A stretch of 51,418 nt of DNA from a virus (lineage: Duplodnaviria; Caudoviricetes). Positions 1,449-25,965 of this stretch are shown here, in pieces. Position numbers and translations under genes: made by a program. Below the pieces are notes generated by a model that searched no databases, was not told the origin of the DNA, and worked only from the letters and a program-made list of their open reading frames with translations. Within the stretch, counting starts at the first letter, position 1, and each line of letters opens with the position of its first letter. The stretch lies in IMG/VR virus record IMGVR_UViG_3300011416_000014, positions 1 through 51,418 of that record; one strand, given 5' to 3'.

Positions 1449-2015
1449 GTGGAGGCAGCCCTTGGCTGGATCGGCGCCATCTTCGAGTGGCTCGGCAGGT
1501 TCCTGCCGCGCTGGGATCTCGTGCGCGCGAACGAAAAGGGCGTCAAGTACCTGCCCGGCGGGCGCACGAAGGTGCTCGAACCCGGCATCCGCTGGTACTG
1601 GCCGGCGACGACCGAGGTAGTCGTGGCGCCGGTGTGCCGACAAGTGCTCAACGCGCAGGGCCAGGCCCTGATGACGAAGGACCATAAGCCTGTCTACGCA
1701 TCGGGGCTGGTGATCTACTCCGTCGAGGACATCCACATCTTCCTGGTCGACAACTTCGACGCGGAAGCCAGCCTGGACGACGTGCTGCAGACTGCGATCC
1801 GCAACGCTATTGTGACGCGCACGTTCGACGAGATCCAGGAAGACCTCGCCGAGATCAACCGCCTCTTGACTCGCGAGACCAAGAAGGTGCTGAGGGACTT
1901 CGGCGTGAAGGTGGAAGCTGCGCGCCTGACTGAGTTCTCGCTGTCCCAAGTGTTCAACGTGGTCGGCAACGGCCTGACCCAACTCAACGTCTCGGGCGCT
2001 CCGCCCGCCCTGTAG
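1449..2015 (+). CDS. SPFH/band-7 (stomatin-like) domain protein
   Basis: SD AAGGAGG and GTG start. E.GV...GG....LEPGIRWYWP, Q.LMTKD.K.V, TAIRNAI and FGVKVE match the SPFH pattern. Confidence 0.8.
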   Translation: MEAALGWIGAIFEWLGRFLPRWDLVRANEKGVKYLPGGRTKVLEPGIRWYWPATTEVVVAPVCRQVLNAQGQALMTKDHKPVYASGLVIYSVEDIHIFLVDNFDAEASLDDVLQTAIRNAIVTRTFDEIQEDLAEINRLLTRETKKVLRDFGVKVEAARLTEFSLSQVFNVVGNGLTQLNVSGAPPAL

Positions 2016-2026
2016 GAGCCATCCAA

Positions 2027-2410
2027 ATGAAGACCCTGATCCTCGCGCTGTCCCTCGCCGTCGCGGCGTGCAGCTCTCCCTACGTGTTGGTCGTCGATCC
2101 GCCGGTCGCTAGCACCGCGCAGCGGGTCGTGGATCGTCACGATTCCTACGTGCAGGGCGATTCTGCCCTCTTCGGCTCGGACCGAGATGACTTCTTGGAG
2201 GAGTCCTCCCGGGTCGAGATGCTGATCTCGCTGCCCGAAGTCAGCGCGCTGGCGCTGGATGCGGCCCTGCAGCCGGTGATGGCGCGGCACGACGCCTACG
2301 TGGGCGCCGACGCCTCGCTCGGGCTGCTGCAGCGTGACATCTACCTGGAGAGCACCGCGCGCCTGCGCGCGCTGCTGGATTCTGTCCTTCGGCCGGTCGC
2401 GGCAAAGTAG
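2027..2410 (+). CDS. Lipoprotein with internal RHDxYV duplication
   Basis: SD AGGAG; signal peptide MKTLILALSLAVAA-C (lipobox). Confidence 0.75.
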   Translation: MKTLILALSLAVAACSSPYVLVVDPPVASTAQRVVDRHDSYVQGDSALFGSDRDDFLEESSRVEMLISLPEVSALALDAALQPVMARHDAYVGADASLGLLQRDIYLESTARLRALLDSVLRPVAAK

Positions 2411-2415
2411 GCGCC

Positions 2416-2706
2416 ATGGAACTGCCGAACGACTACATGCCCGAGTGGTTGAAGTACGTGCTCACCCTGGTGATGGGCGCTGGCGGCGTCCACTACCTTC
2501 GAGCGGTTCTGGAGAACCGCCGGCTGGCCAACAAGGACTTCCGTGAGGTGATGCTGGATCGAATCCGCGAGTTGGAGCGCGTCGTATCCTCGCTGCAGCG
2601 GCGGATGGGCAACATGCGCGCCGAGATGGCCCACTTGGAGGCCGAGAACGGCCAACTGAGGGACAGGCTGGGCGAGCGCGACGAAGAACAGGATGACGGT
2701 TCGTGA
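2416..2706 (+). CDS. TM plus coiled-coil protein (holin/spanin-like, tentative)
   Basis: One hydrophobic segment (YVLTLVMGAGGVHYL) followed by a heptad-rich region. Function is inferred from architecture only. Confidence 0.55.
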   Translation: MELPNDYMPEWLKYVLTLVMGAGGVHYLRAVLENRRLANKDFREVMLDRIRELERVVSSLQRRMGNMRAEMAHLEAENGQLRDRLGERDEEQDDGS

Positions 2707-3218
2707 GCTTCCGCCTCAGAAACAGTGCGGATCTGTGCTCTTGCCTAGGTCTGCGTCCGAATCCAACGCAGCGAGACGCCTTCGAGCGCTTCGAGGCTGG
2801 CGAAAGTCCTCTGGATCTCCAGACGCAGCCCGACCGCAAGGTAATCGGCGGCGTGGGGATCGCCGTTCTGACTCATCTGCTGCTCGTGCCGGGCTCCCAA
2901 GTGCTGGTCGCGGCGTCGGAAACCGACCTGACCGGCAAGCTCATGGGCTTTCTGTACGACACGACCGCACGAATCGACCGTGCGCTTGCCTCGGTTTGTC
3001 ATTGGCCGGCGTGGGACCACCTGCAGATCAGCACTGACCCAGGGCATCGGCTGAAAGTCATGCCGAATAGGCCAGAATGGGCCACCAAATTGGCCATCGG
3101 GGACACCACGCTGGTGCTGCTGGGCTGCAGTTCGCGCGATGTCGACTTCGTGGACACCCGCTGGCGACTCGAACAGCACTTCAAACGGGAGGACGTGCGC
3201 GCGATCCGCGTTTGGTGA
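2703..3218 (+). CDS. Degenerate terminase-ATPase-like protein (paralog of TerL N-terminal domain)
   Basis: GTGA overlap with the previous gene. Colinear with TerL residues ~15-190 (PNPTQ vs YTWQQ; NRPE..TTLVLLGCSS vs TRPE..LTFIADEASG) but lacks Walker A GKT and Walker B DE. Confidence 0.6.
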   Translation: MSFRLRNSADLCSCLGLRPNPTQRDAFERFEAGESPLDLQTQPDRKVIGGVGIAVLTHLLLVPGSQVLVAASETDLTGKLMGFLYDTTARIDRALASVCHWPAWDHLQISTDPGHRLKVMPNRPEWATKLAIGDTTLVLLGCSSRDVDFVDTRWRLEQHFKREDVRAIRVW

Positions 3219-3222
3219 CACG

Positions 3223-4680
3223 ATGAGCCGCTTCGCACGCCATATCGAGCCCCTGTACGGCCGCTGGAGGCGTGACATTCGCGTCTTTGCGCGCGAGGCG
3301 ATGAACTTCGACTACACCTGGCAGCAGGAAGAGCTTTTCAACATCGTGCAGCTGGAAAGTTGGCTGCCGGAGGAGAAGCGCCTGAAGCGCGCTGCCGTTC
3401 GGAGCGGCCAGGGGCCTGGAAAAACCGCCGGCAGCGTGATCGTGGCCCTGTGGCGCTGCATGCGCTATGAAAACGCTCTGACGATCGTCACTTCGCCGTC
3501 GATGCGGCAGTGCAAGCAGTGGATCGACGAGTGCTCGCGCCTGGTGAAGGATGCGCACCCGCTGATGCAGCGAATGGTGCAGTGTTACGGCACCAAGGTT
3601 GAGATCAACGGGTCGAAGATGTGGGGCATCCGCACCGCCACGGCAACGCGGCCCGAGAACCTGCAGGGCATCCACGAGAAGCGGCTCACGTTCATCGCGG
3701 ACGAAGCGTCCGGCGTGTCCGCGAAGATCATGGACACCATCAAGGGAACGCTGTCCAACCCGGATGCTTTCTTCCTCGCAATCGGCAACCCCAACACGAC
3801 CTCCTGCGCGTTCTACGAGTTCTTCACCAGTCAGGCCGCAGCGTGGCACCGGCTGGTGTGGAACGCCGAGGACACGGCGCGTGACTACCCGCACATCCTG
3901 TCCCCGACCCGCAACCGGCAACTCGAACAGGAGCACGGCCGCGACAGCGACGTATACCGCATCCGCGTGCTTGGCGAGTTCCCGCACGAGGACCCGAACA
4001 ACGTGATGTCGCTGCGCGACCTGACCATTTGCACGCGCACCGACCTGCTGGGCTGCGCCGGCATCACCGACCTGCTGCCCGTGAACCGCGCGATCGGGCT
4101 GGACTACGCGCGCTTCGGCGGCGACGAGTCGGTTGTGGCGCGGCGCAGCGGCCTGGCCATCGTGGACTTCCGCACGTTCGTGAAGACCGAGCCTATCAGT
4201 GTGACCGACTACGCTTTCCGCCTGCAGCACGACGCGGGGTGGGCGAACAGCGACTGCTGGTACATCCCGGACGCGGGCGGCATGGGCCAGGGCGTCGTCC
4301 ACTCGTTCCACGAGGGCGGCAAGAACGTCCTGGAGTTCCACACGCAGGCCCGCGCGCACGACTCGTCGATGTTCAGCGACCTGTACAGCGAGGCGTGGTG
4401 GTCGCTCCGCAACCTCACGCGCGAGCACATCGTGCGCCTGCCCAACGACCCGCGGCTGCTGCAGCAGTTGTCGACCCGCCAGTATTACACGGACCGGAAG
4501 GGCAAGCTGAAGGTCGAGTCGAAGGACGAGTGGCGGAAGCGAATGGAAATCACCGAGTCGCCGGACCGCGCCGACGCGGTTGTGATGGCCTTCTACCCGC
4601 ACTTGGGCGACGAAGGCAAGATGGTGAGGGCATCGCCCCGCCGGCACATCGTCGGGAGCAAGGCGCTCCGAAAGCGCTGA
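3223..4680 (+). CDS. terL: Terminase large subunit
   Basis: Walker A RSGQGPGKT, Walker B FIADEASG, coupling motif IGNP, nuclease motifs GLDYARFGGDES and SPDRADA. Confidence 0.95.
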   Translation: MSRFARHIEPLYGRWRRDIRVFAREAMNFDYTWQQEELFNIVQLESWLPEEKRLKRAAVRSGQGPGKTAGSVIVALWRCMRYENALTIVTSPSMRQCKQWIDECSRLVKDAHPLMQRMVQCYGTKVEINGSKMWGIRTATATRPENLQGIHEKRLTFIADEASGVSAKIMDTIKGTLSNPDAFFLAIGNPNTTSCAFYEFFTSQAAAWHRLVWNAEDTARDYPHILSPTRNRQLEQEHGRDSDVYRIRVLGEFPHEDPNNVMSLRDLTICTRTDLLGCAGITDLLPVNRAIGLDYARFGGDESVVARRSGLAIVDFRTFVKTEPISVTDYAFRLQHDAGWANSDCWYIPDAGGMGQGVVHSFHEGGKNVLEFHTQARAHDSSMFSDLYSEAWWSLRNLTREHIVRLPNDPRLLQQLSTRQYYTDRKGKLKVESKDEWRKRMEITESPDRADAVVMAFYPHLGDEGKMVRASPRRHIVGSKALRKR

Positions 4681-4691
4681 GAAATCCCTGC

Positions 4692-4720
4692 TTGATCGCC
4701 GGCAGGTCTCGGGGTATGCT
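4692..4720 (+). promoter_or_regulatory. Sigma70-like promoter for the metalloprotease gene
   Basis: TTGATC-N17-TATGCT in the terL/metalloprotease intergenic region. Confidence 0.5.
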
Positions 4721-4754
4721 CCAGGAGTCGTCCTCTTCCGCCCGGAGCCCTCCG

Positions 4755-5180
4755 ATGCGCGCGCTACTGCCGGCCGTCCTGGCCGCCCTCCTCATGGGCG
4801 GCTGCGTGTCCACTCCCGCCCTCACCGTCGCTCAGGAAACCGCCGAGGCGCCTGCCGGGTTCGAGCCGGCGCTGTTTCAGCGGGCCTGCGAAGCCCTCAT
4901 GGAGCATTGCCCCCTCAACGCGCCGGTCAGGGTCCAGGTACAGCCGCTGGAAGGCTACTACGGCCGCACGCACTGGGCAGGCCAGTACGAGATCGCGATC
5001 GAGGGTCGGCAGCCCATGCAGGGCGTCCTGGACACCCTGATCCACGAGTGGGCGCACGCGATGGTGTGGGATGCCTCCGAAGACCCCGTCTACGGCGGCC
5101 ACGGGCCGCTGTGGGGCGTTGCCTACGCGCGAGCCTATCGGGTCGTCATGGCCGAACTGACCGCGTCAGCGGGCGACTGA
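4755..5180 (+). CDS. Lipoprotein SprT-like Zn metalloprotease
   Basis: Signal MRALLPAVLAALLMGG-C; TLIHEWAHA (HEXXH) and GHGPLWG (third His), the SprT-type pattern. Confidence 0.8.
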   Translation: MRALLPAVLAALLMGGCVSTPALTVAQETAEAPAGFEPALFQRACEALMEHCPLNAPVRVQVQPLEGYYGRTHWAGQYEIAIEGRQPMQGVLDTLIHEWAHAMVWDASEDPVYGGHGPLWGVAYARAYRVVMAELTASAGD

Positions 5181-5260
5181 GGCTTCCCGATCGGGCAATT
5201 CTGGGCCATCGTCGGTCGATTTCGGCTGAATCGGGAGCCGTCCGTTCCCGTTCGGGAAAG

Positions 5261-5308
5261 GAGAAGGCCCGCGCCGGGAGGGAGGCAATCCCCCGGGCGG
5301 GCCTTCTC
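5261..5308. terminator. Hairpin between convergent genes (probable bidirectional terminator)
   Basis: Perfect 12-bp inverted repeat GAGAAGGCCCGC/GCGGGCCTTCTC with inner CCGGG/CCCGG pairing. Confidence 0.65.
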
Positions 5309-5328
5309 TGGCAGCCAAGGGCTGCCGC

Positions 5329-5871
5329 TCAGGACATGATGCCGGCGAACAGAGCCGTGCCGTTCGAGTAGACGCGGGCTGTCTCTCCCACGGCCAGGGA
5401 GAGCGGCACACCGGCGCCACCGCCGTTGATCTGCTCGGCGCCGCTGGGGTCCAGGTTGATAGCCAGCGAGGCATCGTTGCGCACCGTGACCGACTTGCCG
5501 GCCCAGGAGGCAGCCGCCAAGAAGTCGTAGTCGACCGCGCCCGCGCCGGTGTAGTGGACGAACTGGTCGGTGATGAGCTGAGTCGTGGTCAGGGTCAGCG
5601 CGGCCTCCTGCTGCTTCTCCTCCCCGAAAACCAGCCAGGCGGTGCCGTTCGAGTAGCACAAGGTCATGCCGTAGGTGGTCAGGTTGATCCAGATGAAGCA
5701 GCGATCGTACTCCGCAGCAGGAAAGTCGGTCTGCAGATCGGGCAGAGAGGTGATCGTCGCATCCTCGTGGATCGGGATCGGCGCATTGAACAGAACTTCG
5801 TCGTTCGTGTCGACCTTGGCGTCCCAACCCTGGACTCCAGAATCGATGTCGAGCTTCAGCGGTCGTGCCAT
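5329..5871 (-). CDS. Tail tip/fibre-associated structural protein, 180 aa
   Basis: SD AGGAGG; last gene of the tail operon; C-terminal GKSVTVRN..INLDPSGAEQING..LAVGETARVYSNGT beta-domain typical of tail fibres. Confidence 0.65.
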   Translation of the reverse strand: MARPLKLDIDSGVQGWDAKVDTNDEVLFNAPIPIHEDATITSLPDLQTDFPAAEYDRCFIWINLTTYGMTLCYSNGTAWLVFGEEKQQEAALTLTTTQLITDQFVHYTGAGAVDYDFLAAASWAGKSVTVRNDASLAINLDPSGAEQINGGGAGVPLSLAVGETARVYSNGTALFAGIMS

Positions 5872-24370: not shown

Positions 24371-24441
24371 AGCGCAGGATGACCGGGGTCGTCCAGCGAA
24401 AAACCTGGATTTTTCTTACCACTCAACGAGGAAACCTCCCC

Positions 24442-25965
24442 ATGGCCGACGGCGCCGAGGCGGAAATGAAGGTCATCAGCAGCTACCGCACCAGCCAGGA
24501 CATTCACGGCGGGGCCGGGTCCAAGCTGTTCGTCATCCTGAAGAAGGCGGTCGCCGACAGCGTGCGGACACCGACCAACGCTGGCGTCGGCGTAGGCATG
24601 AAGTCCCATCTGATGGACAAGATGGTCGCCAGGGAGTTGCGGGACTTCAACGCCACGCACGCGATCTGCCTGGACGCGAAGAAGGCCGCCTCGGTGGGCC
24701 TCGGACACCGCGAGCAGAAGATCCATGAAGTCCTGGACCCGCTGTGCAGGTTCCACTGGCAGGACGTGCTGGACGCCTCTGCGGAGGACTACTGGGAAGG
24801 CGGCGAGTGCTTCATCGAAGTGGCCTTCGGCGATGAGGACCCGCGCAAGGTGACGTTCCTCGGCCATCTCGACGCCTCTCAGGTTCACGTCGAGATCGAG
24901 AACGAGGACGACAGCGAGTTGTACCATTACATCGTGGACGGCGAAGGCGGCGAGAGCCAGACGCGCGTGATGGCGAAGTGGGGCGACCTCGCGGCGCTCA
25001 AGGCGAGGTTCGGCATTGGCGTGCAGCCGCAGCCCGACGGCAGCGCAGAGGGCGCAGATCCTATCCCGCTCGTCGCGCTGCGCAACGCGAACGAAGTGGT
25101 GCGCACGGGCACCACCGCGCTGGCCGGCGAGATCGTGGACAGCGAAGTGATCCACATCCGGCAGTCTACCAATCGCTCGCGGTACTACGGCTACCCGGAC
25201 TACATGAGCGCCGTGCCGTCGATCGAGCTGGTGCAGGTGATGACCCAGTTCGAGTTTGATTTCTTCTTCAACCGCGGCGTGCCGGAGTTTATGCTGTTCC
25301 TGCTCGGCAAAAATATCGGCCAGTGCTGGGACAAGATCGAAGCGATGATTAAGGCTGGTCACGGCCCGGGCAACTCGCACAAGACTGCAGCGCTGCACAT
25401 CCCGGGCAGCCCAGAAGAGACCAAGGTGCAGATCGAACGGCTCGGCATCGACGGCTCCGCTGACAATGGCTTCGCCGAGAAGTCCGCGCTGCTCGATATG
25501 CGAATCGCCACCGCTCACGGCATGCCCCCGCAGTTGGCGAACATCGCGCTGCCCGGCAAGATCGGCGCGGCCAACGAGGGACCGAACGCGATGCTGACCT
25601 TCCAGCAGCGCAAGCTCGGCCAGTGCCAGAAGAACTTCTCGCGGATGCTGGCGGTGACGTTGGGCGCGAAGGGTATCACGTTCGCGCAGCCGGAGGGTGC
25701 TGCAGCAAAGTTGTCTGCTGACCAGTTCCTCGGCAAGGGCGCCAAGCCGATGACCGACGACGGGGTGCCGCAGTTCGTGCAGCCTGGCAACGGCTTCAAC
25801 ACCATCCTGGACGGGATGACCCTCGGCGCCGCGAACACCCTGGCCAGCATGCGGGAGCCCATCGCCGGCTCCGCTCGCAACCCCGAGGACGGGCTGCTCG
25901 GCGGCGCGCGTGACCGCCCGGCCGGCGACCCGCGCTCCACCCGAAGGCCGGCGGCTGCGTCGTGA
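24442..25965 (+). CDS. Portal protein
   Basis: H..C...K....VGLG, DYW.GG.CFIEV, EVIHIR, YYGYPDY.SA, FF.NRG.PE, IATAHGMPPQL; SD GAGG. Confidence 0.9.
   Translation: MADGAEAEMKVISSYRTSQDIHGGAGSKLFVILKKAVADSVRTPTNAGVGVGMKSHLMDKMVARELRDFNATHAICLDAKKAASVGLGHREQKIHEVLDPLCRFHWQDVLDASAEDYWEGGECFIEVAFGDEDPRKVTFLGHLDASQVHVEIENEDDSELYHYIVDGEGGESQTRVMAKWGDLAALKARFGIGVQPQPDGSAEGADPIPLVALRNANEVVRTGTTALAGEIVDSEVIHIRQSTNRSRYYGYPDYMSAVPSIELVQVMTQFEFDFFFNRGVPEFMLFLLGKNIGQCWDKIEAMIKAGHGPGNSHKTAALHIPGSPEETKVQIERLGIDGSADNGFAEKSALLDMRIATAHGMPPQLANIALPGKIGAANEGPNAMLTFQQRKLGQCQKNFSRMLAVTLGAKGITFAQPEGAAAKLSADQFLGKGAKPMTDDGVPQFVQPGNGFNTILDGMTLGAANTLASMREPIAGSARNPEDGLLGGARDRPAGDPRSTRRPAAAS

Follow-up and report, generated by a model that had tools for sequence, protein, structure and literature searches.

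A very probable TerL-derived pseudo-ATPase encoded directly upstream of the large terminase gene in uncultured tailed phages

The virus record IMGVR_UViG_3300011416_000014 (Duplodnaviria; Caudoviricetes) consists of one viral contig of 51,418 bases, which is rated as linear and as 92% complete and whose full length is referred to here as the window. The element of interest is ORF171, an open reading frame (ORF) of 171 amino acids (aa) located on the plus strand immediately upstream of terL, the gene for the large terminase subunit TerL. A first-pass annotation made from the letters alone had described its product as an apparently inactive paralog of the ATPase domain of TerL at the place where the small terminase subunit TerS normally sits. 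The features of the locus on which the analysis draws were as follows, with the evidence for each in brackets.

2703 to 3218, plus strand: ORF171, 171 aa, stop included, the gene for the very probable TerL-derived pseudo-ATPase (ORF list; homologs; hhalign comparison with TerL; AlphaFold2 model; fold matches)
2703 to 2706, plus strand: GTGA junction, in which the ORF171 GTG shares bases with the TGA of the upstream 96-aa gene (direct sequence reading)
2820 to 2843, plus strand: loop of residues 40-47 at the place of the TerL Walker A P-loop, with no Gly-Lys-Thr/Ser (hhalign register, family columns, model)
3111 to 3134, plus strand: strand of residues 137-144 at the place of the TerL Walker B motif, with Asp-Glu replaced by Gly-Cys and the next Ser kept (hhalign register, family columns)
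3213 to 3215, plus strand: codon of the C-terminal Trp, invariant across the family (family alignment A1; 25 junctions from other loci)
3223 to 4680, plus strand: large terminase TerL, 485 aa, ATPase and nuclease, Walker A and B intact (PHROG, tblastn, homolog lengths)
3421 to 3699, plus strand: stretch of terL from the Walker A helix to Walker B recognised by the ORF171-family profile (A1 profile search, E 3.1e-8, profile positions 57-149)

ORF171 starts with GTG at 2703 and stops with TGA at 3216-3218. An in-frame stop at 2694-2696 leaves this GTG as the sole usable start, and AGGA is found at 2690-2693, 9 nucleotides (nt) 5' of it. The start/stop overlap in the GTGA junction is, as read from the bases, an arrangement typical of translational coupling. 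The frame was found to be intact and tightly packed against both neighbours, as the first-pass annotation had stated, with a 4-nt overlap at the upstream end and 4 nt between the ORF171 stop and the TerL ATG at 3223. This ATG was taken as the TerL start in a longest frame of 513 aa because homologous TerLs are 485 aa and begin at the equivalent Met. TerL itself matched the PHROG 'terminase large subunit' (E 8.8e-32) and by tblastn gave matches in 214 phage records, which among the matches listed were mostly annotated as terminase, and 2160 homologs were obtained at E<=1e-10 among 8000 candidates scored.

Pairwise comparison was blind to the relation between ORF171 and TerL, with a best BLASTP E value of 1.4 that was out of register. 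Pfam and PHROGs contained no family for ORF171 at E<=1, no terminase model in them recognised it, and Pfam searches with all 31 members of its family returned four unrelated weak matches in one member each. The INPHARED phage collection gave no match by tblastn of ORF171 (E<=10) or by blastn of positions 2000-5200, and in a word-indexed protein search at near lengths ORF171 found itself alone, as did the corresponding ORF of locus L086 described below. An exhaustive search of a 50%-identity library yielded 33 ORF171-family representatives at E<=1e-3. P0028, a 638-aa low-complexity repeat protein matched in six stretches, was dropped from these as a false match and P0024, an 88-aa fragment, was left out of the alignment, giving the family alignment A1 of 31 sequences of 167-202 aa. 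The family comprises about 32 clusters at 50% identity with members down to 24% identity. All members are from uncultured phages, and the sole hint of a host is a contig binned into a Planctomycetota metagenome-assembled genome (MAG).

Profile comparison placed the family with TerL. The hhalign comparison of A1 with A3, in which 29 TerLs of this clade are aligned, returned a probability of 98.2% (E 2.8e-14) with 159 columns in register, and ORF171 residues 8-170 aligned with TerL residues 19-187 in the 485-aa numbering. The collinearity with the TerL N-terminus proposed by the first-pass annotation was borne out in that all three of the segment pairs it quoted were aligned to each other in the hhalign output. 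Used as a search profile, A1 matched the TerL of the window at the E value listed above together with the TerLs of most related loci. Its best PDB sequence match was the P74-26 TerL ATPase domain, which was weak (E 0.15) and in register.

The predicted structure points to the same relation. AlphaFold2 run on A1 gave a model of ORF171 with a predicted local distance difference test score (pLDDT) of 94.6 and a predicted template modelling score (pTM) of 0.90, in which residues 1-171 form a single alpha/beta domain that aligns to the TerL ATPase core. In a Foldseek search against the PDB all rows at E<=1e-3 (ranks 1-12) were TerL ATPase domains, with query template modelling scores (TMq) of 0.64-0.73. 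The top VIA-align match was T4 gp17 (Z 15.6, root mean square deviation 2.5, 165 residues aligned) and the further top rows included a T7 model, P74-26 (Z 14.4), HK97 (Z 14.0) and Sf6 (Z 13.8), as well as the PhiV-1 TerL of the Avs3 complex (8dgc_E, Z 13.2), while NAT10-type and DEAD-box helicase domains occupied lower rows at Z 11-14. The named top matches in BFVD were terminases, and a language-model feature search assigned ORF171 to Terminase_6N clusters with a score of 0.95. The model is thus a RecA-like/ASCE sheet with TerL as its nearest neighbour in structure, and the possibility that the fold would be something other than a P-loop/RecA-like sheet, which had been named as grounds for abandoning the idea, found no support.

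Both nucleotide-site motifs were lost throughout the family. The loop equivalent to Walker A is variable among members and in the model lies between a strand (residues 37-39) and a helix (residues 46-61), and GK[ST] was present anywhere in the sequence in 0/31 members compared with 29/29 TerLs. Asp-Glu at the Walker B position was likewise found in none of the 31, the consensus and most members having Gly-Ala where the window has Gly-Cys. As ORF171 ends at the strand that follows Walker B (TerL residues 181-187), the lid subdomain and the RNase H-like nuclease domain are missing. The Walker A and B losses noted at first in one sequence of 171 aa next to a TerL of 485 aa extend to 31/31 members, and neither ATP binding nor hydrolysis at the canonical site would be expected of ORF171. 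Features specific to TerL were kept, including the motif Gln upstream of Walker A (29/31), the Pro-Gly-Ser (PGS) strand, the Asn-x-Pro stretch and the Ser after Walker B.

A C-terminal Trp occurs in all 31 members, 29 of which end with it. Behind this Trp the stop codon was TAG in 19, TGA in 4 and TAA in 1 of 25 distinct junctions at other loci, with none in 1. A stop codon that varies behind an invariant Trp indicates constraint on the protein and not on a ribosome-binding site. A Shine-Dalgarno-like GGTGA serving terL was considered as the cause of the invariant Trp and was ruled out by the TAG in 19/25 junctions. The residue may serve in docking. It is absent from the second, more divergent group of upstream ORFs described below.

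The ORF171 product is therefore almost certainly a TerL-derived pseudo-ATPase and a homolog of the N-terminal ATPase core of TerL. It has the fold and the order of secondary-structure elements of phage TerL ATPase domains (T4 gp17 subdomain I, P74-26, HK97, Sf6 gp2), with which its common ancestry could be demonstrated, and it differs from them in having no Walker A motif, Walker B acids, lid or nuclease and in being a separate gene of 171 aa. The family is new and has no Pfam or PHROG model, and it is neither a catalytic TerL member nor a TerS.

Selection was examined in a paired set of 18 sequences (the window and 17 loci, 153 pairs), in which ratios of non-synonymous to synonymous substitution (dN/dS) by pairwise NG86 counting were usable for 128 pairs. 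In every one of the 128, ORF171 had a higher ratio than TerL. Values by divergence class are given below, with dS near saturation in the distant classes.

ORF171 dN <0.2, n=10: dN/dS 0.19-0.30 for ORF171 and 0.07-0.19 for TerL
ORF171 dN 0.2-0.5, n=45: median dN/dS 0.41 for ORF171 and 0.14 for TerL
ORF171 dN >=0.5, n=73: median dN/dS 0.74 for ORF171 (9 pairs >=1) and 0.33 for TerL

ORF171 is under purifying selection that is much looser than that on TerL, or that includes a diversifying component inseparable by pairwise counts. The relaxed selection of a decaying pseudogene, against which the first-pass annotation had asked that homologs be checked, was not seen among close homologs, and together the profile homology, the fold, the family-wide motif loss and the values of the ten closest pairs uphold its description of an inactive paralog of the TerL ATPase. 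The ORF171 frame was unbroken in 23/24 IMG/VR loci. At the remaining locus, L020 (4291-4826), the homolog is split over two frames by a frameshift or sequencing error and TerL is intact. Swapping of alleles by recombination was rejected as a cause of low ORF171 identity, which falls broadly with TerL identity; mild incongruence between the two proteins was observed at L017 and L018 only.

The occurrence of the gene was followed in loci fetched with TerL (80 from IMG/VR, four genome contigs, of which L087 and L088 were used in the upstream count, and 80 from metagenomes). The sets are not independent, as several contigs are represented both among the metagenome and among the IMG/VR loci. Loci were also sought from single A1 members, giving four for P0004 and none confirmed for P0003, P0018, P0025 and P0032, and the contexts given here are those of the less distant members. 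Among the 82 IMG/VR, L087 and L088 loci, 24 had an A1-type gene upstream of terL, 10 had a gene of the second type (A4), 37 had neither and 11 were not assessable. All 24 IMG/VR loci with a TerL at least 65% identical to that of the window carried the A1-type gene, and all A1 carriers fell there. The gene is immediately upstream of terL with a gap of 0-19 nt in most loci. The metagenome loci were distributed as follows.

TerL >=65% identical: A1-type gene upstream in 12, none in 1 (L101), not assessable 1
TerL 50-64% identical: A1-type gene upstream in 9, none in 0, not assessable 4
TerL <50% identical: A1-type gene upstream in 0, none in 44, not assessable 9

The A1-type gene was thus present in 21/22 assessable metagenome loci with TerL at least 50% identical. 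On a midpoint-rooted FastTree tree of 127 distinct TerLs with Shimodaira-Hasegawa-like (SH-like) supports, carriers formed one clade of 33 rows (support 98) with 30 carriers including the window, two rows not assessable and one without the gene.

The second group consists of ORFs of about 180-210 aa directly upstream of terL in ten loci (L056, L058, L059, L068, L073, L075, L080, L081, L082 and L086) that have TerLs 36-42% identical to that of the window and sit in basal groups of the TerL tree. Hhalign with single sister ORFs was weak (L082 E 0.45, L086 E 0.0045, L068 E 4e-4). Eight of the ten were linked by BLASTP chains to form the alignment A4, with L056 and L081 added later using the A4 profile. 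A4 aligned with A1 at E 1.2e-8 over 142 columns and with the TerL alignment A3 at E 8.9e-11 over 172 columns. Its model, made from an alignment of only 8 rows, had a pLDDT of 77, and its 21 best structural matches were all TerLs (Z 12.3-14.9). There was no P-loop at the aligned position in these ORFs. A1 and A4 may descend from one old duplication with losses between them or from separate duplications.

Two small genes precede ORF171 in the window and have counterparts at the related loci.

2416 to 2706, plus strand: upstream 96-aa gene with one hydrophobic helix and a coiled coil (weak coiled-coil, spanin-like or holin-like matches only, Pfam and PHROGs)
2027 to 2410, plus strand: lipoprotein-like gene with a Cys-containing signal peptide and a repeated RHD-x-YV motif (sequence)

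The RHD-x-YV motif was also recognised by eye upstream of terL in L003, L033, L036, L037, L045, L046, L048, L087 and L101, and its longer form is RHD-x-YV-x-x-D-x-SL. By eye, the pair travels together across the whole TerL clade, 5' of either terL or the pseudo-ATPase gene (2027-2410 and 2416-2706 in the window, 5300-5707 and 5631-6050 in L003, 1173-1553 and 1559-1855 in L101, and 1-468 in L087). Depending on the lineage, the hydrophobic helix of the coiled-coil gene is placed at the N-terminus or at the C-terminus. Where the pseudo-ATPase is missing (L101, L087 and, by eye, the sister loci) the membrane/coiled-coil gene directly abuts terL.

That ORF171 is a dispensable regulator or assembly partner associated with TerL seems plausible, although we would stop somewhat short of calling it probable. 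The gene would have arisen when part of terL, its 5' third, was duplicated in tandem, and would be expressed together with TerL late in infection. As a non-catalytic terminase partner, its product would use TerL-like surfaces to engage the TerL ATPase domain or the partners of TerL and would in this way tune when or how the motor ring assembles or fires. There are functional analogies in other systems, as RecA-fold paralogs without Walker motifs regulate Rad51 (the Shu complex) and clamp loaders contain non-catalytic delta subunits. In these, as for ORF171, a duplicated ATPase fold has lost its nucleotide site and has been retained with the active enzyme, while the systems themselves are unrelated and the likeness is one of function only. 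It is conceivable but unlikely that the packaging enzyme comprises TerL and a dead TerL-derived subunit docked through TerL-TerL surfaces, which would either join the ring or restrain TerL until a procapsid is engaged and so do the regulatory job of TerS with a different fold. Complex prediction for TerL (A3) with ORF171 (A1) gave a score of 0.00 (mark 0.32) and counts neither way.

Several observations weigh against a role as partner of TerL. ORF171 was less conserved than TerL in all 153 pairs, being 21-39% identical between the window and other loci where TerL was 66-83% identical. With a median ratio of ORF171 dN to TerL dN of 3.5-4.1 it changes about four times faster, which is not obviously expected of a fixed structural partner of the slow TerL. 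More distant pairs had dN/dS of 0.4-1.2, and these raised values may be due to saturation of dS, relaxed constraint or diversifying selection. The window copy is also a less typical member, matching 22 of 32 family-conserved positions (family range 11-29), having Leu-Thr-His where both the family and TerL have Leu-Trp-Arg, and having a third-position GC content (GC3) of 0.75 compared with 0.90 for terL. The pseudo-ATPase is moreover absent from L101, a metagenome locus with a TerL 67% identical to that of the window which is nested in a 21-row carrier subclade (starred in the tree), and from L087, the contig binned into the Planctomycetota MAG (TerL 52% identical), as well as from most sister lineages. 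Packaging therefore does not need ORF171, and since one nested lineage packages without it the gene is accessory and not essential.

ORF171 could also be a relic without function, left by a duplication of terL and not yet decayed. The frame split at L020, the loss from one nested lineage, the ten of 32 conserved positions at which the window copy deviates, its GC3 below that of its neighbours and the approach of dN/dS to 1 in distant pairs would all fit such a relic. It is nevertheless extremely unlikely given that an open frame of about 167-202 aa has been kept across members down to 24% identity, that dN/dS is well below 1 in the ten closest pairs, that the C-terminal Trp is in 31/31 members despite a varying stop codon and that the fold was predicted with confidence from an alignment showing coherent covariation.

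The position of ORF171 raised the question of whether it is itself a functional small terminase, with a TerL-derived domain that recognises the packaging start site and switches TerL between cutting and translocating. It lies directly upstream of terL and is coupled to it, in the classical TerS position, and it is small and diverges much faster than TerL, as is typical of TerS. No TerS or helix-turn-helix (HTH) family was found by PHROGs on 25 ORFs or Pfam on 26 ORFs of the window, and four Pfam TerS families searched against all six frames of the complete record gave no match, although one of these families matched no control genome either. The earlier statement that there is no HTH-type TerS thus gained support from each of these searches and is unproven all the same, as TerS is hard to detect by sequence and could be located elsewhere, the record being 92% complete. 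TerS proteins are ring formers built of an HTH domain and helical parts. The ORF171 model is in contrast an alpha/beta RecA-like domain without an HTH or winged-helix domain or long oligomerisation helices, no TerS or HTH family matched it, and the family has isoelectric points (pI) of 4.9-9.5 with no consistent basic character.

Gene order argues in the same direction. In L101, which is nested among carriers, the lipoprotein gene is followed by the membrane/coiled-coil gene and, 6 nt on, by terL (1559-1862), and most sister lineages have nothing TerS-like in the slot. The whole group would therefore be without an adjacent TerS whether or not ORF171 is present. The phrase 'where TerS normally sits' holds for the location immediately upstream of terL and does not hold for the sister lineages, where the slot has no TerS-like gene and the membrane/coiled-coil gene abuts terL. 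These slots and the loss in L101 make ORF171 look like an accessory insertion and not a one-for-one replacement of TerS. We consider a small-terminase function unlikely on these grounds. Locus L078 (TerL 38% identical) has a 134-aa ORF at 3644-4048, upstream of a 281-aa ORF and terL, which is HTH-like by eye and may be the conventional TerS of that lineage.

A role in counter-defence was also considered, in which a TerL look-alike would occupy, or shield against, host sensors (Avs1-3, Upx) that recognise the ATPase domain of TerL, and would not trigger them. ORF171 shares its fold with the ATPase core of TerLs, among them the PhiV-1 TerL in the Avs3 complex, and a patchy accessory distribution with fast evolution would fit an arms-race gene. 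In PMC13601566, the ATPase domain alone is described as activating EcAvs2 and all Upx homologs tested, and T4 vs.8, a stand-alone TerL-ATPase-like protein with Walker A and B intact, as toxic with EcAvs2, from which it follows that such sensors can see stand-alone TerL-like domains. This source also reports that SeAvs3 reads active-site residues and bound ATP and that the EcAvs2 interface is sealed by ATP bridging to the ATP of the terminase itself. Having no P-loop, ORF171 would not carry the ATP and active-site marks that Avs3 and Avs2 read according to that text. A true TerL mimic would furthermore be expected to trigger a sensor and not to block it, and tight coupling with terL suggests late, stoichiometric expression with TerL. 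A decoy of this kind is distinctly unlikely.

By its description in PMC13601566, T4 vs.8 resembles ORF171 as a phage protein consisting solely of a TerL-ATPase-like domain beside a real TerL and differs from it in keeping both Walker motifs where ORF171 has neither; the comparison is one of descriptions. Searches in the full text of open papers (main text without supplements) turned up neither a Walker-less TerL paralog beside terL nor a TerS of ATPase fold. With the closest described protein, vs.8, keeping its motifs, ORF171 can be taken to represent a family that is new, has no model and adopts the fold of the TerL ATPase.

The same combination of a TerL-like fold without activity, rapid divergence relative to TerL and dispensability could suit a weapon against competitors, where a dominant-negative pseudo-subunit would poison the packaging rings of co-infecting satellites or related phages, the TerL of the phage itself being resistant. 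ORF171 is however co-oriented and coupled with terL and is not among early or moron-like genes, and we regard this as very unlikely. Both the poisoning of competitors and the functionless relic are less likely readings than that of a TerL-associated regulator or assembly partner.

Other features of the window lie outside the pseudo-ATPase and terL. The portal gene (24379-25965) and the protease and major head genes are about 20 kb from terL, which is in a short plus-strand cluster. In tailed phages the terminase and portal genes usually adjoin, and so wide a separation is unusual. The same cluster includes a gene for an SPFH/Band 7 domain protein at 1449-2015 (Pfam E 1.6e-19), at the place of which the related contig L003 has a different ORF of 192 aa. 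The gene at 4677-5180 overlaps the end of terL and encodes a lipoprotein-like product with an HEWAH motif and a weak SprT-like Pfam match (E 0.0012, short of the cut-off). The record begins within a gene (2-784) of collagen-like Gly-X-Y repeats and a globular C-terminal part, which from its sequence is probably a tail fibre gene, and L003 has the same collagen-like arrangement.

The motors of viral packaging are regarded as rings made of TerL alone, with help from a TerS that is not related to it. With a conserved copy of the TerL ATPase core that lacks the motifs and is encoded beside terL, a pseudo-enzyme partner would be proposed for such a motor for the first time, and it would provide a natural handle on the control of ring assembly or firing and on how TerL-shaped proteins meet host sensors of the TerL ATPase. 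For annotation, proteins of the family are now called 'hypothetical' or are liable to be taken for TerL fragments. If a dead TerL-derived subunit does belong to the packaging enzyme, the A4 group would mean that, in the long course of phage evolution, pseudo-subunits of this kind either persisted or arose repeatedly.

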